64,000 nucleotides of DNA from the IMG/VR virus record IMGVR_UViG_3300033075_000275, positions 15,873-79,872 of that record, one strand, 5' to 3'. A program made the translations under genes and the position numbers. Positions 36,409 through 63,372 of this stretch are shown one piece after another. Source of the DNA: a virus. Lineage: Duplodnaviria; Caudoviricetes. The notes beneath the pieces are model-generated. The model had not been told where the DNA came from. It did no database searches and was given only the letters and a program-made list of their open reading frames with translations. Position 1 is the first letter of the stretch; every line of letters begins with the position of its first letter.

Positions 36409-36585
36409 GTTAGCTGAATCTTAACCCTCCCTTAGCCTCGGCTTAGGGGAGGGTTTCTTAGCTTAATCTTAACCCCTTCTTAGCTTGGTCTTAGCTAAAT
36501 CAACACGCCCGCAATCTTAGCTAAACCTTAACCACCCCTTAGCTTGCTCTTAACCGCGCGCCCGCCTTAGCTTAATCTTAACCTT
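36409..36585. repeat. 11-bp-phased CTTA(A/G)C array
   Basis: CTTAR at 36420, 36431, 36442; 36457, 36468, 36479, 36490; 36516, 36527, 36538, 36549; 36566, 36577 (extra at 36462, 36571). Confidence 0.9.
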
Positions 36586-36619
36586 CTGTTTACGACATAT
36601 TAAGAAAGCGCCGGAAAGT

Positions 36620-36715
36620 CCTGTGGCACAGACACTTTCGAGGTCGTGAAAACCCTTGTGGCAGAGGCACTTTCGGCGTTGAGGCCCCAAAACCCTTGTG
36701 CCACAACGGAATCCG
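36620..36715. repeat. TGTG-N-CACA motif, cluster 2 (3 copies)
   Basis: Copies at 36620, 36653, 36693. Confidence 0.85.
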
Positions 36716-36776
36716 AGCATAGACGTGTATCTATGCGTTCCCGACGCACTGTAACCTATTTAGCTCGTTCTTAACC

Positions 36777-36842
36777 TGTGACGCAAGTCACACTGGGAAG
36801 GGGCCTCTAGGGCTTGTGTGTGTCGGACCCTAGGTGTACCTT
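36777..36842 (+). promoter_or_regulatory. Perfect CRP-consensus box (TGTGA-cgcaag-TCACA) plus promoter TTGTGT-17-TACCTT
   Basis: Box 36777-36792; -35 at 36814; -10 at 36837. Confidence 0.7.
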
Positions 36843-36866
36843 GTAAGTAGAGAGAAAGGGAAGATC

Positions 36867-37587: not shown

Positions 37588-37598
37588 TGCAAATTTTT

Positions 37599-37673
37599 CT
37601 TAACTAAAATTTAACTGTCTCTTAACCTGGCCTTAACCGGGCGCCCGCCTTAACCCTTTCTTAACGTTACGAT
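37599..37673. repeat. Second 11-bp-phased CTTAAC array around a degenerate cassette core
   Basis: (C/T)TTAAC at 37599, 37610, 37621, 37632, 37649, 37660; CGGGCGCCCG at 37638; TTACGAT at 37667. Confidence 0.85.
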
Positions 37674-37697
37674 AACCTTTAAGAAGCGCCTGAAAAT

Positions 37698-37792
37698 CCC
37701 TCTGGCACAACGACTTTCGACCCTCCAAAGCCCTTGCAGCACAGGCACTTTCAGCCACGATACTGAAAATCCTTGTGGCACAGGCGTTTTCG
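37698..37792. repeat. TGTG-N-CACA motif, cluster 3 (3 copies)
   Basis: Copies at 37698, 37731, 37771. Confidence 0.8.
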
Positions 37793-37864
37793 ACATATCG
37801 ATCTGAATGAATATAGCTGAGCGTAATAGGCCTAAAGTCCTATCAAAGTAGGGACCTATGGGTC

Positions 37865-37893
37865 TATACCGTGTCGGACCCATGGTGTAGCCT
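37865..37893 (+). promoter_or_regulatory. Promoter TATACC-17-TAGCCT
   Basis: 17-nt spacer with shared GTGTCGGACC. Confidence 0.6.
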
Positions 37894-37915
37894 AGAGGCG
37901 AGAGAGAGGGAAGAA

Positions 37916-38116: not shown

Positions 38117-38368
38117 ATGACCGCATACGCCCCGCCTTGCCACCCAGTCACTAACGGAATGGCGCAGGCCGATATCGACAAACTGCTTTACTCCGAATTG
38201 CCCTCAAAGGTCGAGCGGGTAAAGCGCGAATGGTGCGCCAATTGCGCCATTGTTAGCGAATGCCACGCTCAGGGCTTTTGGGTCAACGAGGATAACAAGC
38301 GCATTGCCCTTCCCGGTATTTTCGGTGGAATGACCGAAAAGGAGCGAAAGGCTCTGGTGCGCGCGTGA
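38117..38368 (+). CDS. whiB: WhiB-family Fe-S transcription factor
   Basis: C8...C40xxC43x5C49 and GIFGGMTEKER motif. Confidence 0.8.
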   Translation: MTAYAPPCHPVTNGMAQADIDKLLYSELPSKVERVKREWCANCAIVSECHAQGFWVNEDNKRIALPGIFGGMTEKERKALVRA

Positions 38369-38523
38369 TTACCGTTCCGCGTGAAATGGTATGGATTATC
38401 GGCATCCTGGCGTTTATCGCCATTTTCCTTTTCGGCCGGGTTTCGTATGAATACGGAATTATCGAGGGAAAGTGTATTGCCACGGGTGGAATACTAAATG
38501 CAAAGGAGGAATGCGTACATTAA
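38365..38523 (+). CDS. Small membrane protein
   Basis: GTGA overlap; single TM WIIGILAFIAIFLFG. Confidence 0.55.
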   Translation: MITVPREMVWIIGILAFIAIFLFGRVSYEYGIIEGKCIATGGILNAKEECVH

Positions 38524-38546
38524 CTGAATCTTAACCTCGTCTTAAC

Positions 38547-38652
38547 CGGGCGCCCGCGCGAGCGCGGGCTGTCAACCCCCTTACGATGTGATGTAGAACA
38601 CGCTCAACTTTTCGGATATGGGCTTGTCTGTGTCGGACCATTCTGCTAGAGT
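38547..38652 (+). repeat. Regulatory cassette copy 1 (no hairpin 1; preceded by CTTAAC x2)
   Basis: CGGGCGCCCG-CGCGAGCGCGGGC-TGTCAA-TTACGA-TGTGA-N6-ACACG; TTGTCT-17-TAGAGT (38624/38647). Confidence 0.9.
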
Positions 38653-38681
38653 TGTACCACGACCTAGGGAAAGGAACCATC

Positions 38682-38879
38682 ATGGATGACTACGCTGACT
38701 TCGCGGACTTCGCAGCGGAGGACTACTTCGATGACTACCCCGGCGACTTCGACGCCGAGCAGGACGACTGGTTCCCCGAGGACGACGACGCGCCCGAGCA
38801 GGACTGGCCCGAGGACGACGCGGAGCGGGACGCCTTCTACGCCGAGGCGTGGGCCGACAGTTATCCCGATTGGGGCTGA
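38682..38879 (+). CDS. Extremely acidic/aromatic 65-aa protein (DNA-mimic candidate)
   Basis: 27 D/E, 1 R, 0 K, 15 aromatic residues; AAGGA RBS; sole gene of its module. Confidence 0.75.
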   Translation: MDDYADFADFAAEDYFDDYPGDFDAEQDDWFPEDDDAPEQDWPEDDAERDAFYAEAWADSYPDWG

Positions 38880-38886
38880 CCCTAGC

Positions 38887-39002
38887 CCGACTACTCTCCG
38901 TAGTCGGCGGGCGCCCGCGCGAGCGCGGGCTGTCAAGCCCTTACGATGTGATCTACCTCACCCCTGAAAACACTAGACCTAGGCAGATTTTTCCGATAGC
39001 CT
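38887..39002 (+). repeat. Regulatory cassette copy 2
   Basis: CCGACTAC-TCTCC-GTAGTCGG hairpin, core 38908, TAGACC-17-TAGCCT. Confidence 0.92.
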
Positions 39003-39035
39003 AGGGGCACAAGGTAAACGACCTAGGGAGTCAAG

Positions 39036-39398
39036 ATGGTTGACGTCACATTCACCGACCACGCCTACCGAAAGTTGGGTGGTGACGTCGATCTGGCCAA
39101 GCGTGTCGTGCTGGCAGCGAAGGCTCCCACAGTGACCTACCCCAACGGTCGCTTCCCTGGCCAGGTCCGTTGCATCCGTGACGGCATGGTCGCCGTCGTC
39201 GCTGGCACTCGTATCGTGACGTTCTATGCGAATATCGTGGAGACGGACATTCGCCCGGACCAGACTGACGATGACGCCAAGGCGTATCAGGCGAAGCGTA
39301 ACGCCGAGCGCGCGAAGCGCGACCGGAAGCGCCAGCAGAAGCGCGACGCTGACCGCGCTTTCACCGCTGCACAGAAGGCCGGAAAGGGGCGCAAGTGA
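39036..39398 (+). CDS. DUF4258/RelE-like fold protein with basic C-terminal tail
   Basis: FTDHAYRK...P.VTY...R....R.G.VAVV....IVTFY pattern. Confidence 0.55.
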   Translation: MVDVTFTDHAYRKLGGDVDLAKRVVLAAKAPTVTYPNGRFPGQVRCIRDGMVAVVAGTRIVTFYANIVETDIRPDQTDDDAKAYQAKRNAERAKRDRKRQQKRDADRAFTAAQKAGKGRK

Positions 39399-39607
39399 CT
39401 ACTCACGACAAGATCGTTGATCTTGCTACTAAGATCGCGCGATACAGGCTGAATAACCCCTCCCAAAGGGCGGGGCAGGCATTCATGAATGTTCTTTCGG
39501 CAGAATATCCCGATCTGCATTCCGCAGTTTTTATCAGCGGTGTCGATCCATTCTACAATGACGGCTTGCTCTCCGCCGCTTGGGGCATTGTTTCGCAGAA
39601 TATCTAA
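39395..39607 (+). CDS. Hypothetical protein
   Basis: QRAGQAFMNVL...DPFY motif; GTGA overlap. Confidence 0.65.
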   Translation: MTTHDKIVDLATKIARYRLNNPSQRAGQAFMNVLSAEYPDLHSAVFISGVDPFYNDGLLSAAWGIVSQNI

Positions 39608-39615
39608 CAGCAATA

Positions 39616-39731
39616 CCGCGATTACTCTCCGTAATCGCGGGCGCCCGGCCCAGGCCGGGCTGTCAAGTCCTTACGATGTGATGTATGTCACGCCTAAAAG
39701 TGTAGACAGACTGGCGCTCATGGTGTAACCT
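39616..39731 (+). repeat. Regulatory cassette copy 3
   Basis: CCGCGATTAC-TCTCC-GTAATCGCGG, GCCCGGCC-CA-GGCCGGGC, TGTGA-N6-TCACG, TAGACA-17-TAACCT. Confidence 0.95.
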
Positions 39732-39750
39732 GACAGTAGGAGGTAAGGAA

Positions 39751-40026
39751 ATGATCTTGGGTATCGACCGAATCGAGCGCCGGGCCGCAGTGAATCTGCC
39801 CGCAACGTGCAACCTTTTCGGTGATTGTGGTCTGATTTTCAGTGTCGAGGTTTTCGTGCATTCCGTAAATGGTGACGTGTGGGAGGTAGAAATCCGCGAT
39901 TTGCAGAGTGGGGTTTCGATTTACTCTCCGCCTGACAAGGAATGGAATTTGCTCGTACCGGAAACAATGGCCGAGGCCGAGCCTTACCTTTACCTCCACC
40001 TGTGGACGATTGGAATGATTGACTAA
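39751..40026 (+). CDS. Hypothetical protein
   Basis: 91 aa, AGGAGG RBS. Confidence 0.7.
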   Translation: MILGIDRIERRAAVNLPATCNLFGDCGLIFSVEVFVHSVNGDVWEVEIRDLQSGVSIYSPPDKEWNLLVPETMAEAEPYLYLHLWTIGMID

Positions 40027-40313
40027 TGGGATACAAATTCACCGCGCATGGTAATTGGATGACCATGCACTTTGACGCGCCGCTGACAAGCGCGGGCGTT
40101 GTCAACGTTGGCGGTTACTGGTGGAATTCCCTTCGGGCCGACCCTTACCGGGCCGCTGCCAAATTCGCCAATGAGCGTACCCCATTCCGTAATGACCCTA
40201 ATTGCCCTACGGCAATGGAATTCTGGGCCGGGGTTACCGATGATGACCTTGCCGAATTCGACAAGCGTAATCAGGAATTGTCTGATAATGTTGCTAAGTG
40301 GGGTTCTGAGTAA
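40026..40313 (+). CDS. Hypothetical protein
   Basis: 95 aa, TAATG coupling. Confidence 0.65.
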   Translation: MGYKFTAHGNWMTMHFDAPLTSAGVVNVGGYWWNSLRADPYRAAAKFANERTPFRNDPNCPTAMEFWAGVTDDDLAEFDKRNQELSDNVAKWGSE

Positions 40314-40320
40314 TTCCAGG

Positions 40321-40437
40321 CCCGTGATTACTCTCCGTAATCGCGGGCGCCCGGCCCAGGCCGGGCTGTCAAGTAGTTACGATGTGACATAGGACACCCC
40401 TGAAAATATTGACACAGAGACTCGCAGGGTGTAGTCT
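40321..40437 (+). repeat. Regulatory cassette copy 4
   Basis: Hairpin 40321-40347, core 40344, TTGACA-17-TAGTCT. Confidence 0.95.
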
Positions 40438-40443
40438 AAAGAC

Positions 40444-40605
40444 ACAACAGAACAGAGGATGACAGCAGGAGCGGGCTAGACCGAGGGATTTAGTCACCCC
40501 CATGAAAGCCCACTACTCCCCAAGGGTGGACGCCGGATTGACGATCACAACTCCCAGGGACATAGGGGAAAGTCGAACCCGCTTCTGCCGTGATCTTCTG
40601 TTCGG
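40444..40605 (+). ncRNA. Candidate structured ncRNA (~160 nt)
   Basis: 40450-40475 pairs with 40578-40603 (24 of 26 positions paired incl. G.U); inner helices; own promoter upstream and a new promoter immediately downstream. Confidence 0.7.
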
Positions 40606-40610
40606 ACAAC

Positions 40611-40639
40611 TTGACAAGTCAATAGCGTGGCGATATACT
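40611..40639 (+). promoter_or_regulatory. Promoter TTGACA-17-TATACT for tRNA cluster
   Basis: Near-consensus hexamers. Confidence 0.85.
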
Positions 40640-40684
40640 AGTCTCCTACCGGGGCGCATCCAAAGGGACCGGCCCGGTAGTGTA

Positions 40685-40764
40685 TGCCATGGGCGCTGGG
40701 ACGCATACGAGTCTGTAAAACTTGTCTCATATGGGTAGCAAGGTTCGATTCCTTGACATGGCAC
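40685..40764 (+). tRNA. tRNA-Tyr(GTA)
   Basis: CGAGT-CTGTAAA-ACTTG anticodon arm, long variable arm, CAAGG-TTCGATT-CCTTG T arm; slightly irregular acceptor stem. Confidence 0.8.
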
Positions 40765-40765
40765 A

Positions 40766-40828
40766 AATCAAGGGTAATCCGGCTCGACGGCGACGGCTGT
40801 TGTGGTGTTCGAATCACCTCCCTTGATT
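40766..40828 (+). pseudogene. tRNA-like element without a canonical anticodon arm
   Basis: 9-bp acceptor-like stem AATCAAGGG/CCCTTGATT, GGTG-TTCGAAT-CACC T arm; middle only 29 nt. Confidence 0.55.
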
Positions 40829-40830
40829 AT

Positions 40831-40905
40831 GGCCCCATCGTCTAATGGCTAGGATTGCGCCCTTTCAAGGCGCAGGAAGGGGATCGAAACCCCTTGGGGC
40901 TACCA
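40831..40905 (+). tRNA. tRNA-Glu(TTC)
   Basis: GCGCC-CTTTCAA-GGCGC; encoded CCA. Confidence 0.92.
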
Positions 40906-40931
40906 GATTAGGAATATGGTATACTAATCAT

Positions 40932-41228
40932 ATGGCATATTCTGATATCGAAAAAAGAAATGAATGGTTTCGCAAACGCTATCAAGATAATCTTGAGTTT
41001 GTTCAAAACTATAAAATGAAAATCGGATGTTCTGACTGTGGATGGAATGAGCATCACGCGGGGTTAGAATTTGATCACGTAAATCCTCATGTGCGCGGAA
41101 CAGTTTCGTCACAATTAGGAAAGTCAAGAAGAGTTATACTAGAAGAAATATCTGCTTGTGAGGTAGTTTGTTCTAGGTGTCATTCACTTAGAACATGGAA
41201 CAGAAGAGCCCAGATGGTTCAAGAGTAA
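40932..41228 (+). CDS. HNH endonuclease inside tRNA array
   Basis: CSDC...LEFDHVNP...LEEISACEVVCSRCH; AGGA RBS; AT-rich. Confidence 0.8.
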   Translation: MAYSDIEKRNEWFRKRYQDNLEFVQNYKMKIGCSDCGWNEHHAGLEFDHVNPHVRGTVSSQLGKSRRVILEEISACEVVCSRCHSLRTWNRRAQMVQE

Positions 41229-41257
41229 GATTTCGGGTTCGATTCCCGTTGGGACTA
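41207..41257 (+). pseudogene. tRNA remnant lacking anticodon arm
   Basis: D-loop-like TGGTTCAAGAGTAAGAT joined directly to CGGG-TTCGATT-CCCG and TTGGGACT; overlaps HNH 3' end. Confidence 0.5.
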
Positions 41258-41366
41258 CGTAGCAAAACTATCGGCAAGGCCAGTCGGTAGAAAGGGAGGG
41301 CGCTGTAGCGAAAGCAGGCCCTAACAAAAACCGTCAATGACGGTAACAAAGCCTCCCAAATATAAT

Positions 41367-41440
41367 TCCGGTGTAGTGTAATGGTAACACAAGTGCTTCC
41401 AAACCATTTGATAGGGGTTCGATTCCTCTCACCGGGGCCA
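41367..41440 (+). tRNA. tRNA-Trp(CCA)
   Basis: TT-CCA-AA loop, GGTTCGATTCC T arm, encoded CCA. Confidence 0.85.
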
Positions 41441-41441
41441 A

Positions 41442-41513
41442 GCCTCCATAGTGAATGGGTTATCATGCATCCCTGTCAAGGATGCGAAACGGGTCCGAGT
41501 CCCGTTGGAGGCG
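41442..41513 (+). tRNA. tRNA-Asp(GTC)
   Basis: CATCC-CTGTCAA-GGATG; GCCTCCA/TGGAGGC acceptor. Confidence 0.88.
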
Positions 41514-41519
41514 CGTTAA

Positions 41520-41590
41520 TCTCCTATAGTTCAATGGCAGAACGGATGGCTGTTAACCATCTAATCTAGGTTCGAATCCTGGTGGGAGAG
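41520..41590 (+). tRNA. tRNA-Asn(GTT)
   Basis: GATGG-CTGTTAA-CCATC; TCTCCTA/TGGGAGA acceptor. Confidence 0.9.
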
Positions 41591-41636
41591 CGGGCGAGAG
41601 ATACCAGGGTTTAAACGTATTCCTCTCCACCCCTAA

Positions 41637-41707
41637 GGGGGTATAGTATAATGGCAAAACCGCTGGCTCTTACCCAGCAGATCGGAGTTCGACTCTCCGT
41701 GCCCCTA
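41637..41707 (+). tRNA. tRNA-Lys(CTT)
   Basis: GCTGG-CTCTTAC-CCAGC; CGGAG-TTCGACT-CTCCG. Confidence 0.85.
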
Positions 41708-41709
41708 CT

Positions 41710-41820
41710 GTTACCGTGAGTGATCGCGGGCGCCCGGCCCAGGCCGGGCTGTCAAGTGTTTACGATGTGATCTAGGACACTTCTAAATATCTTGACAGAT
41801 GACAACTTTTACTATAGCCT
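41710..41820 (+). repeat. Regulatory cassette copy 5 (degenerate hairpin 1)
   Basis: Core 41727, TGTGA-N6-ACACT, TTGACA-17-TAGCCT. Confidence 0.92.
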
Positions 41821-41826
41821 AGTTAC

Positions 41827-42096
41827 ATGAGCCGCACAGACAAGACCGACCCGTGGTGGACTCAGGGTACATGGGTTCCCGTACACGATCACTCTAGGGG
41901 AGCGTGTACTCTCCCTGCCAATCCGCCCTGTCACCACATCACCACGTCATACCGTCACGGTAAGTGCCACTGGACTAAGCGTTGGGATGAGGTCAAGTGG
42001 TCCCGTGACAAGTCGGCTGATCGTGCCGAGCGGGAATGGCTTACTCGCAAGACCCGCTATCGTCGTAACCGTTTGCAGAACGATGATTGGGATTGA
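41827..42096 (+). CDS. Basic His/Cys/Trp-rich hypothetical protein (leaderless)
   Basis: MSRTDKTDPWW...; ATG at predicted +1. Confidence 0.75.
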   Translation: MSRTDKTDPWWTQGTWVPVHDHSRGACTLPANPPCHHITTSYRHGKCHWTKRWDEVKWSRDKSADRAEREWLTRKTRYRRNRLQNDDWD

Positions 42097-42206
42097 TTAC
42101 TCTCAGTAATCACGGGCGCCCGGCCCAGGCCGGGCTGTCAAGTGTTTACGATGTGACTTAGATCACCTGGAAATATCTAGACCGTCACAGTGAATCGTGG
42201 TATAGT
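42094..42206 (+). repeat. Regulatory cassette copy 6
   Basis: TGATTAC-TCTCA-GTAATCA (contains upstream TGA stop), core 42113, TAGACC-17-TATAGT. Confidence 0.92.
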
Positions 42207-42212
42207 CTAACT

Positions 42213-42359
42213 ATGAGTAGCCGACCGAATCCTCGCCGGGCAAGTGAACACCAGCGTATCGTTATTGAGCGCCGTCGATCCAGCGCCGCATCCCCTCATG
42301 TCAACCGCGTCCGATATGATCGCAACCGTTCTAATAGGGAATGGAAGCGTGATGCCTGA
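42213..42359 (+). CDS. Small Arg-rich protein (leaderless)
   Basis: MSSRPNPRRASEHQRIVIERRRSSAASPHVNRVRYDRNRSNREWKRDA; ATG at predicted +1. Confidence 0.65.
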   Translation: MSSRPNPRRASEHQRIVIERRRSSAASPHVNRVRYDRNRSNREWKRDA

Positions 42360-42558
42360 CTCTATAAATCCAATGCATGAACCGCCACACGCGCACGGTA
42401 TTGCTCTCAGCCCCGCCGATGTGAGGCAACTAGAGGCAGCGCTAGACGCGCCTCCTGCCGTGATCGAATCGTTACGCAAACTTCTTGACACCCCCCCCCT
42501 CAATCTGATAGGGTACTCGTATGGCACTCACCCGATCCAAGGACCGCAAGGTTACTAA
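42352..42558 (+). CDS. Short protein with DUF1778 (TacA/AtaR antitoxin) C-terminal-like motif
   Basis: IALSPADVRQLEAALDAPPAVIESLRKLL; weak RBS, overlaps next gene. Confidence 0.35.
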   Translation: MPDSINPMHEPPHAHGIALSPADVRQLEAALDAPPAVIESLRKLLDTPPLNLIGYSYGTHPIQGPQGY

Positions 42559-43228
42559 CGCTGTTTCGCCTAATGGAAAGACGGCAGTAATTGCTAATTC
42601 ATTCGGCCTTCCTGCCGGAAAGGCATTTAGTTGCCCCGGCGCTACCCCATTCTGCGAGCGTATTTGCTACGCTGGCAAATTGGAAAAGGTTTACAAGGGT
42701 GTGCGTAATGTCCTTATGTCCAACTGGAATCAATTGCAGAATGTCACGTTTTCGGAAATGGTCGAATTGCTCGACCGTATGATTACCGATTTCGAGGCGG
42801 AATGCGATAAGCGCGGGGCCGATAAGGCATTCCGTATCCATTGGGATGGGGATTTCTTTAGCAACGATTACACTATCGCATGGCGCGAGGTTATCAACCT
42901 TCACCCCGATACTCATTTCTGGGTTTACACGCGGGTAAAGGATGCGGCAATGATGCTGCACAATGCCAACCTTTCTAACCTTTCGCTTTACTTTAGCGCC
43001 GACCGCGACAATATCTACAATGCCCGGTTGCTTTCTAGCGTCGGTATCAACGTTGCATATGTCGATGACACTTTCGCACAGGGTAAGGCAGAATTTCCGA
43101 AGGCTGCCCGGTGCCCTGAGAATAACAAGGCTATCCCCCTCATTTCCACTAAGGGTAGCGCGTGCATTGTTTGCGGCCTTTGCGTGAATGGTCGGAATGA
43201 CGTGCTGTTTGCGGTGAAAAAGCGATGA
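42521..43228 (+). CDS. GP88-family (radical-SAM-like Fe-S) protein, leaderless
   Basis: FGLPAG..FSCPGATPFCERICYA (CX6CX3C), RIHWDGDF, FWVYTR, NLSLYFSAD; promoter TTGACA-18-TAGGGT. Confidence 0.75.
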   Translation: MALTRSKDRKVTNAVSPNGKTAVIANSFGLPAGKAFSCPGATPFCERICYAGKLEKVYKGVRNVLMSNWNQLQNVTFSEMVELLDRMITDFEAECDKRGADKAFRIHWDGDFFSNDYTIAWREVINLHPDTHFWVYTRVKDAAMMLHNANLSNLSLYFSADRDNIYNARLLSSVGINVAYVDDTFAQGKAEFPKAARCPENNKAIPLISTKGSACIVCGLCVNGRNDVLFAVKKR

Positions 43229-43299
43229 ATAGTTTTGTCACCTTTCTAGTTATCCTGGGAATTGCATTCTTTTGGATGGTCTATTGGAAACCACGCTAA
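43225..43299 (+). CDS. Membrane micropeptide
   Basis: MNSFVTFLVILGIAFFWMVYWKPR, ATGA overlap. Confidence 0.5.
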   Translation: MNSFVTFLVILGIAFFWMVYWKPR

Positions 43300-43305
43300 G
43301 TAACC

Positions 43306-43421
43306 CCGCCGTCACTCTCTGTGACGGCGGGCGCCCGGCCCAGGCCGGGCTGTCAACCCCTTACGATGTGACGTGGATCACCCATAAAACTATAGACTCC
43401 CGACCCCTGATCATGTATGCT
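43306..43421 (+). repeat. Regulatory cassette copy 7
   Basis: CCGCCGTCAC-TCTCT-GTGACGGCGG, core 43328, TAGACT-17-TATGCT. Confidence 0.95.
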
Positions 43422-43452
43422 TGCATCATCACCTAGAGAAAGAGGTAATACA

Positions 43453-43584
43453 ATGGCTCTGTCCGTTCTCATCGCCGCCGAGGTTTGGAATCGTAAGGAC
43501 GGCGCGGTTGTCAAGTCCGTCGTTCGTACCGAGGATGGCCGATTCGTCGGCGTGACCAACCAGACGCGGGAGGTCAAGGCATGA
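43453..43584 (+). CDS. 43-aa protein with EVW..G..V..VVR.E.GRF.GVTN motif
   Basis: GAGGT RBS; paralogue of the repeats in 48449-48658. Confidence 0.65.
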   Translation: MALSVLIAAEVWNRKDGAVVKSVVRTEDGRFVGVTNQTREVKA

Positions 43585-43796
43585 GCGAGAAGTACGCTCT
43601 TGACGTAATGCCGGGGGACATTCTCGATCTTGACGAGCGTGGCCCCGTGCTGGTCGATTACGTTTTCCAACCTAGCGATGACTACTCCGCCGTTGTCATT
43701 AGCGGTTATGACCCCGATGGTGATGAATTCGATGAGGAATTCGACCCCGATGACGTGCTGACCGTTCGTCATAACCTCGCCTATCTTTGGGACTGA
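43581..43796 (+). CDS. Small acidic protein
   Basis: 71 aa, ATGA overlap. Confidence 0.65.
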   Translation: MSEKYALDVMPGDILDLDERGPVLVDYVFQPSDDYSAVVISGYDPDGDEFDEEFDPDDVLTVRHNLAYLWD

Positions 43797-43797
43797 T

Positions 43798-43986
43798 ATG
43801 CCTACCCCGTTCGAAATCCTGTTCCCCGCCGAGGCGGCAATGCGTGATATGCGTATCTGCCCGCTCTGCCAGGTTGCCATCAACCCCGGCGATTTCCGCG
43901 ATGCTATTTCGCTGCGAGAGTCAGAGATTAGCGGCATGTGCCAGACGTGCCAGGACAACTTTTTCACCGATGGAGACGAGTGGTAA
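43798..43986 (+). CDS. Small Zn-finger protein
   Basis: CPLC...FRDAISLRESEISGMCQTCQD. Confidence 0.7.
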   Translation: MPTPFEILFPAEAAMRDMRICPLCQVAINPGDFRDAISLRESEISGMCQTCQDNFFTDGDEW

Positions 43987-44207
43987 TGACCATTCTGTGT
44001 GGTAAGACCCGTCCGCAAGCCGACCCGTATGAGATTTGGGTCGATGGTGACTGGACGTGGCTGGTGCTGAAAAAGTATCAGAACGACGACCGCAAGCCTT
44101 ATGCACGCTGGCTTTGTGCGGTAAAGTCCCCGTTCACCTTCGGTTCGTATGAGGTTGGCGACGTGTATGCTGCCGAGGTCATGGATTCTGCGGAGCGGGT
44201 TCTCTAA
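43986..44207 (+). CDS. Hypothetical protein
   Basis: WTWLVLKKYQ..PYARWLCAVKSPFTFGSYEVGDVY; TAATG coupling. Confidence 0.7.
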   Translation: MTILCGKTRPQADPYEIWVDGDWTWLVLKKYQNDDRKPYARWLCAVKSPFTFGSYEVGDVYAAEVMDSAERVL

Positions 44208-44380
44208 TGGATAGGCAATGGCGTCGGACATTCTTTCTGTCCCTCGCCATTTGCTTTATCCTATTCAGTGTGTTTCGTGCCGTTCTACTGGTCTATATTG
44301 CTGAGCAGGAAAAGGTGACGGGCGAACCTAACTACAATTGTACAATTTGTACAACTGTCCCCCCTGATTACTCTCCGTAA
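44207..44380 (+). CDS. Small membrane protein ending inside cassette hairpin
   Basis: MDRQWRRTFFLSLAICFILFSVFRAVLLVY...CTICTTVPPDYSP*; stop in 3' arm of hairpin 1. Confidence 0.55.
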   Translation: MDRQWRRTFFLSLAICFILFSVFRAVLLVYIAEQEKVTGEPNYNCTICTTVPPDYSP

Positions 44381-44478
44381 TCACGGGCGCCCGGCCTAGG
44401 CCGGGCTGTCAAGTCTTTTACGATATGACATAGAGCACGCCTAAAACTATAGACTGTCACTCTGCCACATGCTATTCT
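44365..44478 (+). repeat. Regulatory cassette copy 8
   Basis: Core 44384, perfect GCCCGGCCTAGGCCGGGC, TAGACT-17-TATTCT. Confidence 0.93.
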
Positions 44479-44506
44479 TGACCTACCAACCGAGAAAGGA
44501 ACCCAA

Positions 44507-44737
44507 ATGTCATCATCCCCCGGAGTGTTCATCGTCAAGGACGGTCGGCCCTTCATCGACGTTCTCACCGTTACCGAAAACATGTGCCAGTTCGCGGTGA
44601 ATATGCTTCGATCCAACAACGCCCCCGTTCCCCGCGAGATGCTTGAGTTTTTCGGTGAGGCTGCGACGATGCGGGCGGAATACATCATTGTAGAGGCCGA
44701 CCTCGCCATGCTCGACCCCGATACTGTGATCGTCTGA
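44507..44737 (+). CDS. Hypothetical protein
   Basis: 76 aa, AAAGGA RBS. Confidence 0.65.
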   Translation: MSSSPGVFIVKDGRPFIDVLTVTENMCQFAVNMLRSNNAPVPREMLEFFGEAATMRAEYIIVEADLAMLDPDTVIV

Positions 44738-44744
44738 GGAGAGC

Positions 44745-45008
44745 ATGATGACTGATATTCCCGAGGGTGTAATCGGATCATACAAGGTCACCCTTCTAGT
44801 AGATCGGAAGCCTTGGATGCTCGACCCGGCTGATTGGGATTGGGAGGCTCTGTGTGGTCCCGATACCAAGGTTGTCGATTGCCACCTCGTAGGGGTTCGA
44901 CTGGATGATGATGAGTTATATGCCCGGCTGGATGAAACCCGCCAGACTTGCGGTCAGCCAGACAATTGTGGCGACTGCGACCACACTTCTGGGAATGGAA
45001 ATCTGTGA
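44745..45008 (+). CDS. Acidic hypothetical protein
   Basis: 87 aa, GAGGAG RBS, C-terminal C....CGDC. Confidence 0.65.
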   Translation: MMTDIPEGVIGSYKVTLLVDRKPWMLDPADWDWEALCGPDTKVVDCHLVGVRLDDDELYARLDETRQTCGQPDNCGDCDHTSGNGNL

Positions 45009-45499
45009 ACAGTAACAAGACTCAGATTCATCGCAAGCGTATATCACGCCCTATGCTATGGCTTGTGAATAACGTGCGAGTGTTTGAGAATGCACGTGTG
45101 CTTCATTTCGGTGAGGGCCGCGCGTTTCTCGACACCCAGGCCCTTATTGATGAGGGAGCATATGTAACTGCGTATGACCCTTATTCCCCCGCGCCTGCTC
45201 AGCGTGACGATGTTGTCATCTACAACTACTACGACTATGTAATTGCAGTCTACGTATTTAACGCTCTGGAACCGGGAGAGCGCATTCAGGCCTACTCCGA
45301 TTTCATTACCGCCAAGATGGGTGGAGTCGGATACATTGCCTTGCGTACTGACAAAATCGCCGGGGTACCCTATGAGGATGGCGTCATTACCCAAAAGTAT
45401 ACCTTTCAGAAGTCTTACACCCCCGAGTCAGCGGTCGAGGAATTCGGCGGCAAGGTAATTCACAAGGGTTCCGGCTTTCTCATTCTGGAGATTTCATAA
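45005..45499 (+). CDS. Small class I SAM-dependent methyltransferase
   Basis: VLHFGEGRA.LD (motif I variant), AYDPY, YDYV..VYVFNAL, TFQKSYT. Confidence 0.65.
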   Translation: MNSNKTQIHRKRISRPMLWLVNNVRVFENARVLHFGEGRAFLDTQALIDEGAYVTAYDPYSPAPAQRDDVVIYNYYDYVIAVYVFNALEPGERIQAYSDFITAKMGGVGYIALRTDKIAGVPYEDGVITQKYTFQKSYTPESAVEEFGGKVIHKGSGFLILEIS

Positions 45500-45515
45500 C
45501 TAACGACGATCTTAT

Positions 45516-45628
45516 CCGGTCCATTCTGGACGGCGGGCGCCCGCGCCAGCGCGGGCTGTCAAGTCTTTTACGATAAGTTAAATATTTCCCCTAAAAACCT
45601 TGACATCCACCCTGGCAGCATGTAGAAT
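45516..45628 (+). repeat. Regulatory cassette copy 9
   Basis: Core 45534, GCCCGCGC-CA-GCGCGGGC, TTACGAT, TTGACA-17-TAGAAT; no CRP-like box. Confidence 0.9.
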
Positions 45629-45634
45629 GACCCC

Positions 45635-45703
45635 ATGGACCTACTATTGATGATCTTGTTAGGTGTGACCCTCGTCATACTCGCAGTCACTTGGAAGCCC
45701 TAG
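45635..45703 (+). CDS. Leaderless membrane micropeptide
   Basis: MDLLLMILLGVTLVILAVTWKP; ATG at predicted +1. Confidence 0.5.
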   Translation: MDLLLMILLGVTLVILAVTWKP

Positions 45704-45729
45704 ACATAGCCGCCCGAATCTGCTAGACT
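45701..45729 (+). promoter_or_regulatory. Promoter TAGACA-17-TAGACT
   Basis: Directly upstream of DUF932 gene. Confidence 0.65.
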
Positions 45730-45760
45730 TGCATCACAAGCCAATCAAGGAAGGAACAAC

Positions 45761-46768
45761 ATGCCTGCTGCTGTCGAAACCTCCGGTCGCCTCGCGGCCT
45801 TTGCTTCCCGTGAGGTGCCCGCGTGGCACGCGCTGGGAACTGTCTTTGAGGGTAACCTCAACACTCAGGAAATGCTCGCTCTCGCTCACCTGAATGGATG
45901 GAACGTTCGGCTCGTCCCGTTTGAGGCTGTCCTCGACTTCGACACCTATGCCAAGCCGCAGTTTCTCGTCGTCCGCGATAACCCGTTCGGTGACGGCCAG
46001 GGCGTTCTCGGCACGGTCGGCTCCCGCTACAATGTCGTGCAGAACGAACAACTGTTCGACTTCGGTGACCTCATCCTCGATGGTGGTGGCCGCTGGGAGA
46101 CTGCCGGGTCCATCAAGGGCGGAACCCAGGTGTTCGGCTCTCTCGCCTTCGATGAAAAGACCATCACGCTCGACCCCGATGGTCGCTCTGACGAGGTAAA
46201 GACGTTCCTCCTGGTCGTGACCGGCCACGACGGCTCATGTGCCGTTACTGCTATCGTGACTCCTGTTCGTGTCGTGTGCGCGAACACGCTGGCCGTTGCC
46301 CTCGGTGGGGCCAAGTCTAAGTTCACGATTCGTCACACTTCCACGGTCGATGGCAAGATCGCTGCCGCTCGTAAGGCGCTCGGTGTGACCTTCGGTTACA
46401 TGGACGCTTTCCAGGCAGAGGCTCAGGCCATGATCGAGAAGGAAATCACTAAGGCCACCTTCGATGACCTTGTGACCTCTCTCTACCCGATGCCCGAGAA
46501 GGACGCCAAGGGATCGGTGAAGAAGTGGACGACCAAGATCGACCAGATCGAGGCAATTTATCTCGGTCAGGCTGACGGTCCCGACACGACCTCCGCCATT
46601 CGCGGAACGGTTTGGGGCGCGTACAATGCCCTTACCGAAAATCTGGACTGGTACGGTAAGATTCGGGCGGGTAACGTCGAATCCCTTACCCTTGGTGCTG
46701 CTGGTCTGGATATCGCTAAGGCTGCTGAGAAGGAGCGGATTCACTCCCGCGTCCTGGCTCTGCTCTGA
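45761..46768 (+). CDS. DUF932-family phage/plasmid protein
   Basis: AWHALG, LGTVGSRY.VVQN, ETAGS..GG..VF, GHDGS..V, TPVRVVCANTL, RHT, GT.WGAYNALTE.LD. Confidence 0.85.
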   Translation: MPAAVETSGRLAAFASREVPAWHALGTVFEGNLNTQEMLALAHLNGWNVRLVPFEAVLDFDTYAKPQFLVVRDNPFGDGQGVLGTVGSRYNVVQNEQLFDFGDLILDGGGRWETAGSIKGGTQVFGSLAFDEKTITLDPDGRSDEVKTFLLVVTGHDGSCAVTAIVTPVRVVCANTLAVALGGAKSKFTIRHTSTVDGKIAAARKALGVTFGYMDAFQAEAQAMIEKEITKATFDDLVTSLYPMPEKDAKGSVKKWTTKIDQIEAIYLGQADGPDTTSAIRGTVWGAYNALTENLDWYGKIRAGNVESLTLGAAGLDIAKAAEKERIHSRVLALL

Positions 46769-46835
46769 CATTCCATCCTGGGCATGATGTAAAACTGCCT
46801 CCACACTTTGTACCATTCAGCATCCACATAATGTA

Positions 46836-46963
46836 CCGCGATTACTGAGAGTAATTGCGGGCGCCCGGCCTAGGCCGGGCTGTCAAGTCCTATTACGATA
46901 GATTACGAAAATCACTGAAATTCGCAGAAAATCCTTGACACGCTGGCCTGTAGGGTGTACCCT
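46836..46963 (+). repeat. Regulatory cassette copy 10 (inverted hairpin-1 loop, duplicated TTACGA)
   Basis: CCGCGATTAC-TGAGA-GTAATTGCGG, core 46858, TTGACA-17-TACCCT. Confidence 0.92.
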
Positions 46964-47004
46964 AGGGGTAGTCAATGAGATGAAACCGACGGACTACAAG
47001 AAGG

Positions 47005-47235
47005 ATGGCTGACTGTATGACATTTCGTATTGACACCGCTAAGTTTGGTGACATGCTGCCCAACGGAGCCACCTTCATCGGTAGCCGGTGCAGGGCTAAG
47101 GGCGAGTGGATCGTCCTTGCCAACTATCGGGGAGAGTTTGTAACCTGGGCTTCTACCGTCAACGGTGAAACTTTTTGGGGTAGGTACTTCCAAACCCACA
47201 TCGTTGACGCCGTTTCCGATTTTCAGACGCGGTAA
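47005..47235 (+). CDS. Hypothetical protein
   Basis: LPNGA...EFVTW...G.TFWGRYF motif. Confidence 0.65.
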   Translation: MADCMTFRIDTAKFGDMLPNGATFIGSRCRAKGEWIVLANYRGEFVTWASTVNGETFWGRYFQTHIVDAVSDFQTR

Positions 47236-47265
47236 AGATAGTCCGAAGTGACTAGGCCAAAACCC

Positions 47266-47294
47266 TAGACAACCCCCCACCAAGCGTGTATCAT
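47266..47294 (+). promoter_or_regulatory. Promoter TAGACA-17-TATCAT
   Basis: Upstream of Lsr2-like operon. Confidence 0.7.
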
Positions 47295-47337
47295 AGTACA
47301 CATAAGAGCAAGACCCACCACCATAGTAGGAGGAACA

Positions 47338-47586
47338 ATGGCCACCACGGTCAAGCCCACCCCGTCCCTCGTCCGCGCGTTCGCTGCGGCTGCCAAGGAT
47401 CAGGGCCTCGCTCCTGACGACCTGGCTGTCCACCAGCGCGGCAAGGTTTCCAAGGCGGAGGTCATCTTCTACCTCCACCAGCACCCCGCGACTACGCGCG
47501 AACTTGCTACCGGCCTTGGCCTGGAAATCGGCAAGCGCGGCGTGATCGCTGAGTCCGTTTTCGCTGCCGTTGCCGACTCTCTCTGA
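47338..47586 (+). CDS. Protein with two degenerate Lsr2 DNA-binding repeats
   Basis: VRAFA...GL...QRGKVS and TRELA..LGLEIGKRGVIA; AGGAGG RBS. Confidence 0.6.
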   Translation: MATTVKPTPSLVRAFAAAAKDQGLAPDDLAVHQRGKVSKAEVIFYLHQHPATTRELATGLGLEIGKRGVIAESVFAAVADSL

Positions 47587-47615
47587 GGGTTGGCACGGCC
47601 CAACCCGATTGGAGA

Positions 47616-48140
47616 ATGATGGCAACTAAGAGAGAGTGGCTAGCGGCTCAGGGCCTAGCAAAGCCCGGCACCCGTGGCCGATTCGGTAAGGCAGCGCATG
47701 AGGCTCTAGAGCAGGCAGAAAAGGACGGCATCGTTTTCGATGACCCGACTCCCAAGCCTGCTAAGGAGGTGGCGACGGAGGGAGCGGAGGCTCCCTCCAA
47801 GCCTAGTCGGCCCACGTCTGAGAACGCAGAAATTAGGGCGTGGGCCAGGGATAACGGATTTACTATCGGTGAGCGCGGCAGAATCTCGGCAGAAATTCTA
47901 GCCGCCTACCATGGTGATCCTATTCCAGATAATGACTATGTACCACCGCCACCCCAGGTCCGGGTCCGCCCGGCGCGGGTGATGTACGGATTCGACAATG
48001 ACGGACATAAGATCGGGTTTGCTACCTGTGGACGATGCGCAGAACACATCTCGTACTGCGAGTGTTCAGAGGGAATCAAGACACCTTTCGGCGTGAACGC
48101 TATTGACGAGTCCCTTACGGAGTGGTACACTTCCGTATGA
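47616..48140 (+). CDS. Lsr2-like protein: two RGR AT-hook domains plus Cys cluster
   Basis: KREWL..QGL..PGTRGRFG; AEIRAWARDNGFTIGERGRISAEILAAY; CGRC....CEC. Confidence 0.8.
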   Translation: MMATKREWLAAQGLAKPGTRGRFGKAAHEALEQAEKDGIVFDDPTPKPAKEVATEGAEAPSKPSRPTSENAEIRAWARDNGFTIGERGRISAEILAAYHGDPIPDNDYVPPPPQVRVRPARVMYGFDNDGHKIGFATCGRCAEHISYCECSEGIKTPFGVNAIDESLTEWYTSV

Positions 48141-48153
48141 CGAAGGGAGTCTA

Positions 48154-48435
48154 ATGGCACAGGCACCGGAAGCCAGGGCCGCAAAGTCATTCGCCAACTA
48201 TGCGTGTGACAGTCGATTCGTCCCGGCTCTATTCGGCCAGGTCGTAACGCAAATGACGGTCGTTGAGCAGGAACGCATGGTCGCGGCACTGCTAGGCATT
48301 ACTCAAATGCTGGCGATCAACTACAGTTATGGGGCATTCACGACGGAGCAGGAACGATTGCTATACAAACTCTGTGCTGATATCTGGCGAGTCGCTGAAT
48401 CTTCCTACTTGACAATCCCACCCGATCTGCTTTAG
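48154..48435 (+). CDS. Hypothetical protein
   Basis: 93 aa, GGGAG RBS. Confidence 0.65.
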   Translation: MAQAPEARAAKSFANYACDSRFVPALFGQVVTQMTVVEQERMVAALLGITQMLAINYSYGAFTTEQERLLYKLCADIWRVAESSYLTIPPDLL

Positions 48436-48448
48436 AATGGAGTACGGA

Positions 48449-48658
48449 ATGCTAAAGACGCTGGAAGCCTGGAATACCAAGGCCGGACGAACCGTGCGCG
48501 TTGTGGTTCGTGATGAGGCTGGACGTTTCCTGGGCGTCACTAACAAGGCCACCGCCTTTGGTCTGGAAGTGTGGGACACCGCATCAGGACCGAAGGTGAA
48601 GGTTACCGCCCGTGAGGGTGGTAAGTTCCTGGGCGCAACAAACGTCGCCCTGTCCTAA
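48449..48658 (+). CDS. Two-repeat protein of the VVR..GRF.G.TN family
   Basis: AWNTKAGRTVRVVVRDEAGRFLGVTN and VWDTASGPKVKVTAREGGKFLGATN. Confidence 0.7.
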   Translation: MLKTLEAWNTKAGRTVRVVVRDEAGRFLGVTNKATAFGLEVWDTASGPKVKVTAREGGKFLGATNVALS

Positions 48659-48661
48659 GTA

Positions 48662-48750
48662 GGGAAGCGGGATCGGCTACTAAGGCATACCTTGGTCGGG
48701 GAGTCTTGCCGAGTCGAATATCCAAGAGAGAAATCCTCCCGCTCTTTCCC
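48662..48750 (+). ncRNA. Nested stem-loop element after last early gene (strand uncertain)
   Basis: GGGAAGCGGGA/TCCCGCT..TCCC, TCGGC/GCCGA, CTAAGG-CATA-CCTTGG. Confidence 0.45.
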
Positions 48751-48787
48751 CCGCCCCCTGTCTATCTAGAGCCTCATTATATCCAGC

Positions 48788-48817
48788 CTTGACAGCCCGG
48801 GCGAGGCCGGGCGCCCG
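48788..48817 (-). repeat. Inverted cassette core
   Basis: Reverse complement CGGGCGCCCGGCCTCGCCCGGGCTGTCAAG; minus-strand TATAAT at 48776-48781. Confidence 0.9.
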
Positions 48818-48836
48818 TTTATCATATTATATCCCA

Positions 48837-49300
48837 TATGTCCGTTTACGATTGCTTTTACGATGGGCATAAATTTTCGCCTGAAATGTCCGTTTGTTTG
48901 TTCTATTACGATTGGTGCCTTTAAACCCCTGAAATTATGCTAAAGTGGAGGGAAACCTTTATCAACACTTGGCTAAAAACCATACCAAGTGGAGGGAAAG
49001 TATCAGATTTAGGCTATTCTGAGGGTCTAAGTGGAGAGTTATTGAATATTGATATGGTCTGTGCGCGGGGTTTTCGGCCCCGCGCACTGTCGTTTTGTGC
49101 CTCAGTTCGTCAATATTTACATAATTGAGGCGGGATTTGCCCTATAATCCCCCCTCATACACCCTATATACAGTAGTAGAAGCATAGTAGCACCTTGTAT
49201 CTGTTGTACAAATTGTACAAAATTTGCTGAAAACATGTACATATTGTGCAGAATTTGCTGTATATGCCCTCAAAATGCATAAAAAATAGACATTACGATG
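48837..49300. repeat. AT-rich non-coding array
   Basis: TTACGAT at 48846, 48858, 48906, 49293; AAGTGGAG at 48943, 48987, 49029; TGTACA at 49205, 49214, 49236. Confidence 0.8.
49061..49087. terminator. Perfect 10-bp GC hairpin between convergent gene blocks
   Basis: GTGCGCGGGG-TTTTCGG-CCCCGCGCAC. Confidence 0.7.
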
Positions 49301-62079: not shown

Positions 62080-62096
62080 TGTTTGCCTTTCTATTG

Positions 62097-62358
62097 TGGA
62101 GTAGGAGGGAATCGAACCCTCGTCCAATGATGTTCAAATTCTAGCAGTTACAACGATGCACTAGCGTTTGTAACAATTGTGTAACAATTTAGTACGGCCT
62201 GACCTTTATTGACGGGGTGGTGGTCAGGAACCCCGGCACTTGCCTATGCTGCGAGTGCTAGTTGAGATTGATTTGCATTTATTGTGTTGTGACTGATTGA
62301 GTCAGTCAGGCTCGTTGCCGCTTCGATCATAGCATCACTGTCGAAACCTGTCTACCCC
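62097..62358 (-). ncRNA. ssrA: tmRNA (compact, 262 nt), tag ANQSQLALAA
   Basis: 5' GGGGTAGACAGGTTTCGAC; G3.U70 acceptor GGGGTAG/CTACTCC; T arm GGGTTCGATTCCC; tag ORF 62244-62276 after ATAAAT. Confidence 0.93.
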
Positions 62359-62363
62359 TTGCG

Positions 62364-62448
62364 TGCCCAAGGCGGGGGTCGAACCCGCACGTCCTTGTGA
62401 GACAATAGTTTTTGAGACTATCGCGTCTACCTGTTCCGCCACTCGGGC
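62364..62448 (-). tRNA. tRNA-Leu(CAA)
   Basis: ATAGT-CTCAAAA-ACTAT, long variable arm. Confidence 0.92.
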
Positions 62449-63295: not shown

Positions 63296-63299
63296 TGAG

Positions 63300-63372
63300 T
63301 GCGGGCGGTGGGATTCGAACCCACACTGATCAGATTTTAAGTCTGTTGCCTCTGCCATTGGGCTACGTCCGC
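63300..63372 (-). tRNA. tRNA-Leu(TAA), short variable loop
   Basis: CAGA-CTTAAAA-TCTG, GTGGG-TTCGAAT-CCCAC. Confidence 0.9.

Follow-up and report, generated by a model that had tools for sequence, protein, structure and literature searches.

The closest described counterparts of the locus presented here are the promoter-early stem-loop (PeSL) cassettes of T4-like phages (Arbiol et al. 2010, PMC2839356; Comeau et al. 2014, PMC4122927). A second point of reference is provided by the Streptomyces cluster BE phages, which are siphoviruses of ~130 kb with ~50% GC content, many tRNAs, and a transfer-messenger RNA (tmRNA) (PMC5764925). The direct terminal repeats of the BE1 phages are ~11 kb in length, contain 20-25 small open reading frames (ORFs) including lsr2, and have been likened to those of T5 and SPO1 (PMC5764925). 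The subject of this analysis is an array of small-gene cassettes in the IMG/VR viral contig IMGVR_UViG_3300033075_000275, which is 79.9 kb long and ~63% complete. Bases 15873-79872 of the contig constitute the 64,000-nt stretch that was analyzed, hereafter referred to as the window, and all positions are given in its numbering. Each cassette is headed by a copy of a composite element built from GC-rich hairpins, a palindromic core, conserved boxes, and a promoter. We consider it probable, at roughly 0.8, that this element is a repeated insulator and early-promoter unit, similar to the PeSLs, that organizes the terminal-repeat host-takeover region of a large lytic BE-like actinophage.

The positions of the units are provided in Table 1. 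A search with the 29-nt core pattern CGGGCGCCCG-SSS-NN-SSS-CGGGC-TGTCAA yielded ten forward matches and one inverted match, as compared to an expectation of zero from 100 shuffles. Every full copy listed in the original prediction, which had been made by inspection of the letters, was thereby recovered, as was the inverted copy. The two degenerate copies of that list were also located, one as a 1-mismatch version of the 10-mer CGGGCGCCCG at 36555 and the other as the 10-mer itself at 37638. No further copies of the core are present in the entire 79.9-kb contig. With the two upstream degenerate units counted, the array extends over ~12 kb and comprises about a dozen units, and the same 60-110 nt recur at intervals of ~1 kb. 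Adjacent copies are more similar to one another than under random order (permutation p ~0.001-0.002), in keeping with the earlier impression that neighboring copies share variants.

In most copies the minimum-energy RNA fold of the 5' portion of the unit contains two compatible tandem GC-rich hairpins. Hairpin 1 is characterized by an extended stem of 7-12 bp and a loop that is mostly UCUCC, and the last bases of its 3' arm are the CGGG of the core. In hairpin 3, namely GCCCGGC-CCAG-GCCGGGC, the core supplies the GCCCG with which the 5' arm starts. Hairpins 1 and 3 simply meet at the 10-mer palindrome, and the prior description of three mutually exclusive inverted repeats was thus overstated. 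Paired cells make up 93% of the total, as compared to 79% for shuffled sequences and 24-43% after sliding of the partners. In hairpin 1, each of the six pairs is changed on both sides in some copy, and two pairs of hairpin 3 are swapped from GC to CG in three copies. Because of these compensatory changes, both stems are regarded as supported. The fold z-scores range from -3 to -6 in most copies. In most cassettes a stop codon is positioned 0-20 nt ahead of hairpin 1 or within its arm. Located at the 3' end of the preceding cassette, the tandem hairpins may terminate, attenuate, or stabilize the upstream transcript and in this manner insulate one cassette from the next. They are followed by UGUCAAG instead of a U-run, and the only canonical intrinsic terminator is that at 49061-49087.

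Beyond the hairpins, the unit continues in the order TGTCAA, TTACGA, a Crp/GlxR-like box, an A-tract, and the promoter. When the ten copies are aligned, columns without variation are confined to the core, the TGTCAA and TTACGAT boxes, GA within the -35 hexamer, and the A and T of TAnnnT. All ten copies contain TGTCAA-N4-6-TTACGA, and in all ten the -35/-10 spacer is 17 nt in length with a freely variable sequence. Because the -35 and -10 positions are invariant across this variable spacer, the motif TTGACA/TAGACA-17-TAnnnT, found in 10/10 copies, is assigned on sequence evidence as a host sigma-70-type promoter. In seven copies 26 nt separate the end of TTACGA from the -35 hexamer; one copy has a gap of 27 nt, and the remaining two have gaps of 36 and 37 nt. 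Copy 46858 has an extra TTACGA at 26 nt. These spacings were all measured as first reported. Three copies (41727, 42113, and 45534) have an ATG at exactly 6 nt past the -10 hexamer. Such a leaderless arrangement is common in actinobacteria and thus lends support both to the predicted promoters and to an actinobacterial host. A host-type (HrdB/sigma-70-like) promoter in this position would restart transcription, with between one and five small genes or RNAs downstream of it. One promoter subtype, GGGCTTGT..GTGTCGGACC..TAGNNT, is common to copy 38547 and both degenerate units. Two other candidates, TGTCAA as an opposite-strand -35 and TTACGA-18-TAAAAN as a second promoter, were rejected by eye, neither having a usable -10 hexamer (the final T is lacking). 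An N4-type hairpin promoter was set aside, since an ordinary -35/-10 pair follows every copy.

Comparison of the array and of one element with 50,697 phage records by megablast/blastn revealed no close relatives, and the exact core pattern has no match in IMG/VR contigs or metagenome contigs. A box-pattern search did, however, lead to two IMG/VR contigs, designated G001 and G002, that contain homologous arrays of 10-13 kb and encode proteins 43-65% identical to those of the present phage. A looser box pattern produced at least 120 single matches in metagenomes and, among the matches listed, only the source of G002 is a true relative. The palindrome pattern CGGGYAAGNNCTTRCCCG identified in IMG/VR just one more likely relative (L067) beyond G001 and G002. 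The units of the latter two contigs contain a variable hairpin 1, the palindrome CGGGCAAG-NN-CTTGCCCG, and a second hairpin that shares GCCCG and is thereby interlocked with it, followed by TGTCAA, TTA(C/A)GA, a phage-specific box, and a promoter. The palindrome in the window corresponds to CGGGCAAG-NN-CTTGCCCG minus its center. Given that the TGTCAA and TTA(C/A)GA boxes are kept despite protein identities of only 43-65%, they are considered to be constrained as sequence. The gaps between TTA(C/A)GA and the -35 hexamer are 26, 28, 35, 36, and 36 nt in G001 and, as read by eye, 25, 37, and 37 nt in G002. In all three phages the gaps fall into two classes, 25-28 and 35-37 nt. These classes are one helical turn apart, and the spacing therefore points to a putative factor or bend acting from one helix face. 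The distance between TGTCAA and TTACGA, on the other hand, varies from 0 to 6 nt across the phages.

Several additional features of the related elements were observed. In G001 (L033) the box TCACGGGAA is situated either just upstream of the -35 hexamer or within the -35/-10 spacer, giving rise to two promoter sub-classes that recall the variable stem-loop positions of PeSLs. A DnaA-box-like sequence, TTATCCACA, is repeated in the intergenic elements of L021 (7760-7810), L026, and L033 (~3440-3465), and both arms of a hairpin 1 in G001 are formed by it. Jay2Jay and other BE1 phages have a repeated hairpin-palindrome-promoter element of their own with a different sequence (GGGCCCTTCGGGGCCC, GTCCGGGCCCGGAC, and TGTAGACT in BE1). 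Clusters of TTTACGA boxes are found in Jay2Jay at two places, close to the first promoter and within the final 700 bp of its repeat.

The portal protein shares 59% identity with its counterparts in Streptomyces cluster BE phages (Jay2Jay, Tomas, and others), and the phage is, as far as its sequence tells, a distant relative of that cluster. Indeed, the portal, the tape measure, and the synteny all group it with these siphoviral phages rather than with the T4-like myoviruses, and its likeness to the PeSLs is one of function, not descent. The portal match, together with WhiB, Lsr2, and the leaderless starts, bears out the prior assignment of the DNA to an actinophage. Within the array, GP88, DUF932, Lsr2, and a protein referred to as M10e (48437-48658) are homologous to the products of the Jay2Jay repeat genes gp10, gp5, gp9, and gp19, respectively. 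To the left of the array are genes for RNR, a glycosyltransferase, and ThyX, as is observed in Jay2Jay just inside the left repeat boundary. To the right, the region from 50.7 to 63.3 kb is colinear in reverse with Jay2Jay from 122.2 to 106.4 kb, which covers the right unique end and repeat gene 1. Because the synteny on both sides of and inside the array fits assembly through a collapsed repeat, the array most likely occupies the equivalent of the terminal repeat, roughly 36-51 kb, present as a single copy in the assembly.

Three further observations concern this region. Homology to Jay2Jay repeat gene 1 stops near 50.75 kb, a point near which the physical end of the genome, at the outer repeat boundary, may be located. 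In Jay2Jay itself (NC_029098.1), bases 1-1407 align with 122,094-123,500, the end of the stretch fetched, at 100% identity; this gives a repeat length of 11,438 bp, with the HNH gene gp26 inside it, and the table in the genome announcement gives a value of 10,778 bp (PMC5764925). Finally, a tmRNA (tag ANQSQLALAA) is encoded beside tRNA-Leu(caa) and tRNA-Leu(taa) on the minus strand of the window (62094-62448 and 63299-63372), in a region that is syntenic with the tRNA-rich right arm of the BE phages.

The original prediction had called for a comparison of module content and order among relatives, and the order proved not to be fixed. GP88 precedes DUF932 in all twelve arrays compared, Lsr2 and several other families shift, and the number of intervening cassettes varies. 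In L021 the order is [DUF932][F3 F11], and in L024 and L028, which display ~72-88% nucleotide identity in these segments, it is the opposite. The breakpoints lie within intergenic elements of 70-110 nt. In the L021/L024 swap the promoter moves with its gene and the palindrome is genome-specific. Among six BE1 repeats, 49 of 300 indel or replacement ends are located inside coding sequence, as compared to the ~70-76% of the sequence that is coding; the events were counted in several pairs and are hence non-independent. Between Peebs and Samisti12 there is a single cassette replacement, flanked by conserved elements. All of these junctions in repeats belong to the related groups and not to the element in the window. 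They nevertheless place the seams of relatives at intergenic repeats, and the PeSLs, first proposed as an analogy on the basis of the window alone, are judged to be the right one. By recurring throughout the array, the elements may allow homologous recombination to add, remove, or swap whole cassettes in the absence of a dedicated recombinase, as has been proposed for the PeSLs. The shuffling is most simply described as ordinary homologous recombination at repeated regulatory DNA combined with selection for intact cassettes.

A number of points weigh against the view that the element is an insulator and early-promoter unit of a terminal repeat. Intrinsic termination is not assured, since a U-tract follows no hairpin, and mycobacterial RNA polymerase has been reported to require one. 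Of the complete terminator-promoter-gene(s) module that had been suggested, the cassette of hairpin, promoter, and gene(s) is retained and the terminator is presumptive. Early expression is deduced by analogy, and the position in a terminal repeat is deduced from synteny. If the homology to Jay2Jay gene 1 at 50.7 kb is taken into account, the repeat would be ~14 kb long, exceeding those of the BE phages. For the L021/L024 swap, in which promoters and palindromes behave differently, later homogenization or a genome-specific binding protein must be assumed. Breakpoints in intergenic regions are also expected from illegitimate recombination followed by selection for intact genes, and the turnover in the relatives does not separate repeat-promoted recombination from selection for intact cassettes.

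A possible but tentative alternative is that the conserved core (CGGGCGCCCG, TGTCAA, TTACGA, and GTG-N8-CAC) serves chiefly as an operator array through which a phage regulator, or host Crp with cyclic AMP (cAMP), switches the early region jointly, in the manner of the cluster A stoperators or the phiC31 conserved inverted repeat (CIR) operators. This proposal is compatible with the roles assigned above to the promoter and the hairpins. It would explain why the 10-mer palindrome is kept in two degenerate units that have no flanking hairpins, and it agrees with palindromes that are genome-specific and promoters that move with their genes, with the conservation of TGTCAA and TTA(C/A)GA in three divergent phages, and with the two gap classes observed in each. 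Between TTACGA and the A-tract, eight of the ten copies contain a GTG-N8-CAC box of the form (T)GTGA-N6-NCAC. There are seven exact TGTGA-N7-CAC sequences in the array plus one with a single mismatch, and 12 in the whole window versus 2.6 expected. These boxes agree in sequence with the published actinobacterial motifs, GTG(N)6GNCAC for Crp of S. coelicolor and GTG(N)8CAC for GlxR of C. glutamicum (PMC10033298). The centers of the boxes, however, are at about -53.5 (or -64) relative to the inferred start, and -53.5 is neither a classical class I nor a class II CRP position. Moreover, G001 has TCACGGGAA instead of the dyad, sometimes within the spacer, and the 0-6 nt that separate TGTCAA from TTACGA across phages are not those of one rigid site. 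Neither a Crp-type helix-turn-helix gene nor another candidate regulator was identified in the 80-kb contig, in which Sigma70_r2 and HTH_Crp_2 are absent, this being weak evidence at ~63% completeness. For the insulator and promoter unit favored here, TGTCAA, TTACGA, the GTG-N8-CAC dyad, and the A-tract, lying on one helix face, would represent sites for host or phage factors together with an UP-like element. An extension of these ideas, which strikes us as unlikely, is that the boxes and the Crp-like dyad form a shared enhancer that gates host takeover in this phage family by host physiology, through a host factor such as Crp-cAMP or a phage protein that is injected or made very early, in units that also make cassette circles or exchanges.

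Far less credible is a dedicated, structure-defined recombination system in which cassettes are moved at the hairpins, as an integrase moves integron cassettes at attC sites. A plug-and-play recombination system had been put forward in the original prediction, with attC sites as one analogy, and a dedicated system would account for a structure conserved with compensatory changes, for inverted repeats that interlock here and in the relatives, and for the differences in cassette content and order among them. A search of the rest of the contig for a recombinase or annealing protein, however, revealed no integrase (PF00589), resolvase (PF00239), RecT, or Sak4-type/AAA_24 gene in the 80 kb, again weak evidence given that ~63% of the genome is present. 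Every cassette has its own promoter, unlike the promoterless cassettes of integrons, and the anchor genes hold their order. All of the features can be accounted for by hairpins and promoters with no recombinase. Least probable of all are selfish palindromic mini-elements, similar to repetitive extragenic palindromes or miniature inverted-repeat transposable elements, that spread through intergenic gaps with incidental promoter-like parts: composite palindromes do recur and the copies are homogeneous within and different between genomes, but they are co-directional with the genes, confined to one region of the contig, conserved in their -35 and -10 positions and spacer length, and followed by leaderless ATGs at a fixed distance from the -10, and neither target-site duplications nor a transposase was seen.

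With respect to the cargo, most of the 27 ORFs have no PHROG or Pfam match. A WhiB gene is found directly before the first full copy. Of the labels given initially, those of DUF932, the Lsr2 DNA-binding protein, the six tRNAs with an HNH gene, and a hyper-acidic 65-aa protein stand, and a 235-aa protein belongs to the Pfam family GP88. The methyltransferase and toxin-like proteins were dropped, having no Pfam or PHROG support even at E values up to 1. The first half of the fourth cassette contains a candidate structured RNA of ~165 nt (window 40444-40610, plus strand) with a long closing stem, a minimum free energy of -66 kcal/mol, a z-score of -4.95, and no credible ORF; no Rfam family matched it at E values up to 1. 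It is followed by a second strong promoter, TTGACA-17-TATACT (40611-40639), that leads into the tRNAs. Two paralogous small proteins, encoded at 43453-43584 and 48437-48658 (M10e) in different cassettes, contain the motif ..W(N)xKxG..V..VRxExGRFxGVTN.., and their homologues in Jay2Jay (gp19), G002, and L014 are located at differing array positions.

Table 1. Units of the repeat family and features at the boundaries of the array (window coordinates)
Feature	Position	Strand	Description
Degenerate unit 1	36410..36846	+	CTTAGC/CTTAAC repeats phased 11 bp; core CGCGCGCCCG (36555); TTACGA; dyad repeats ending ACTTTCG; perfect palindrome TGTGACGCAAGTCACA (36777-36792); promoter type GGGCTTGT..GTGTCGGACC
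Degenerate unit 2	37598..37895	+	Layout as degenerate unit 1; core CGGGCGCCCG at 37638; cargo: small ORF, WhiB gene (38117-38368), membrane peptide
Copy 1, core 38547	38520..38652	+	CTTAAC repeats replace hairpin 1; TTGTCT-17-TAGAGT; TTACGA gap 37
Copy 2, core 38908	38885..39002	+	Hairpins, boxes, promoter TAGACC-17-TAGCCT
Copy 3, core 39638	39616..39731	+	Hairpin 1 39616-39640, hairpin 3 39643-39660; TAGACA-17-TAACCT
Copy 4, core 40344	40320..40437	+	TTGACA-17-TAGTCT; predicted to drive ~165-nt structured RNA; downstream, second promoter (40611), then six tRNAs and HNH gene
Copy 5, core 41727	41714..41820	+	Begins right after tRNA-Lys; TTGACA-17-TAGCCT; leaderless-type ATG
Copy 6, core 42113	42094..42206	+	TAGACC-17-TATAGT; leaderless-type ATG; cargo includes GP88-family protein (42521-43228)
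Copy 7, core 43328	43305..43421	+	Aligned promoter TAGACT-17-TATGCT; five small ORFs
Copy 8, core 44384	44361..44478	+	TAGACT-17-TATTCT; stop codon of upstream gene within hairpin arm
Copy 9, core 45534	45519..45628	+	TTGACA-17-TAGAAT (11/12 consensus positions); no Crp-like box; cargo: leaderless 22-aa peptide, DUF932 (45761-46768)
Copy 10, core 46858	46836..46963	+	Hairpin-1 loop flipped; two TTACGA; TTGACA-17-TACCCT; cargo includes Lsr2 (47616-48140)
Inverted core, array end	48789..48817	-	Neither TTACGA nor promoter after core on minus strand
TTACGA cluster after array	48838..48934	+	48-nt tandem repeat; resembles TTTACGA cluster in last 700 bp of Jay2Jay terminal repeat
Canonical terminator	49061..49087	+	12-bp stem and T-run, where array meets minus-strand genes

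Two additional repeat families are observed near the left end of the array. CTTAAC/CTTAGC hexamers with an 11-bp period, or about one helical turn, are positioned ahead of the first three units at 36410-36603, 37598-37668, and 38520-38546. The corresponding position in Jay2Jay, ~0.7-0.9 kb into the terminal repeat from its inner boundary, is occupied by phased GTACATA repeats. The phased hexamers could constitute a bend, a binding array, or a packaging/injection signal. A ~29-bp repeat, GAAAnnCCnTGTGGCACAGnCACTTTCG, with the internal dyad TGTGGCACA, occurs in eight copies at 36612-36700 and 37691-37792, between the core and the promoter of degenerate units 1 and 2 only.

No description of such an array in BE phages was found in the literature searched. 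The original suggestion that the system is undescribed in this form applies to its specific boxes and not to the kind of system, which is already known. What is new are the upstream boxes that are conserved in sequence, the helical phasing that they retain in divergent phages, and the dyads of Crp/GlxR-like type. For a large and poorly studied family of Streptomyces-type phages, the terminal-repeat genes of which are nearly all of unassigned function, the units furnish elements that probably act as early promoters, insulators, and upstream control boxes. Both the boxes common to divergent phages and the helical phasing point to one testable host-takeover regulator, and a link to Crp/cAMP, if true, would tie phage early expression to host physiology. 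The notion that repeated regulatory DNA serves as an exchange seam for accessory genes, developed for the PeSLs, is extended from T4-like phages to actinophages. The units are also candidates for compact promoter/insulator parts for Streptomyces.

As can be seen from the above, the array most closely resembles the PeSLs, which are likewise composite repeats in which a stem-loop is combined with an AT-rich upstream tract and an early promoter that is strong and of host type. In both systems a stable stem-loop is joined to the promoter, here in the form of two tandem hairpins with compensatory changes and low z-scores, and the repeats are sited between small, mostly ORFan genes in a plastic region. 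Cassette indels or replacements at the repeats, known for the PeSLs, are observed here among the related groups. There is no sequence homology between them, and the hosts are actinobacterial here and Gram-negative for the PeSLs. Whereas the PeSLs are found in ~50 dispersed copies, the present units, ~12 in number, form one tandem co-oriented array, probably in a terminal repeat. They differ further in having two hairpins that are always upstream of the promoter and in the additional conserved boxes (TGTCAA, TTACGA, and the Crp-like dyad) in helical phase with it, and their promoter and terminator activities are predictions.

The stoperators of cluster A mycobacteriophages and the CIR operators of phiC31 are repressor sites distributed genome-wide in temperate phages. 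They share with the array many co-oriented short conserved sites in actinophage intergenic gaps and at the ends of transcription units. The present copies, in contrast, belong to a lytic phage family with no known repressor, are limited to one region, and are fused to promoters.

The host-takeover regions of SPO1 and T5, as far as the account in PMC5764925 goes, resemble the array in having a terminal repeat of ~10-13 kb packed with many short small-gene operons, each with its own strong early promoter and ribosome site, and in carrying cargo that acts on the host nucleoid or transcription, for which Lsr2, WhiB, and the acidic mimic-like protein would be the counterparts here. For the present phage the repeat position is deduced from synteny, and the regulatory units are much more alike in sequence, with upstream boxes that recur in divergent phages. 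There is no homology in cargo, and the unit in the window is homologous to neither the PeSLs nor the SPO1 module. Finally, the terminal repeats of Jay2Jay and its relatives (Stanwilliamsviridae; PMC5764925) share with the array the homologous anchor genes GP88, DUF932, and Lsr2, the same flanking synteny, a repeated hairpin, palindrome, and promoter between small genes, and probably cassette turnover at intergenic elements. They differ in the sequence of the repeat, in the reversed order of Lsr2 and DUF932, and in the TTTACGA boxes, which in Jay2Jay are concentrated at the repeat ends rather than present in each unit. Of the 27 cargo proteins, only 4 have a homologue that could be detected in the part of Jay2Jay that was searched.

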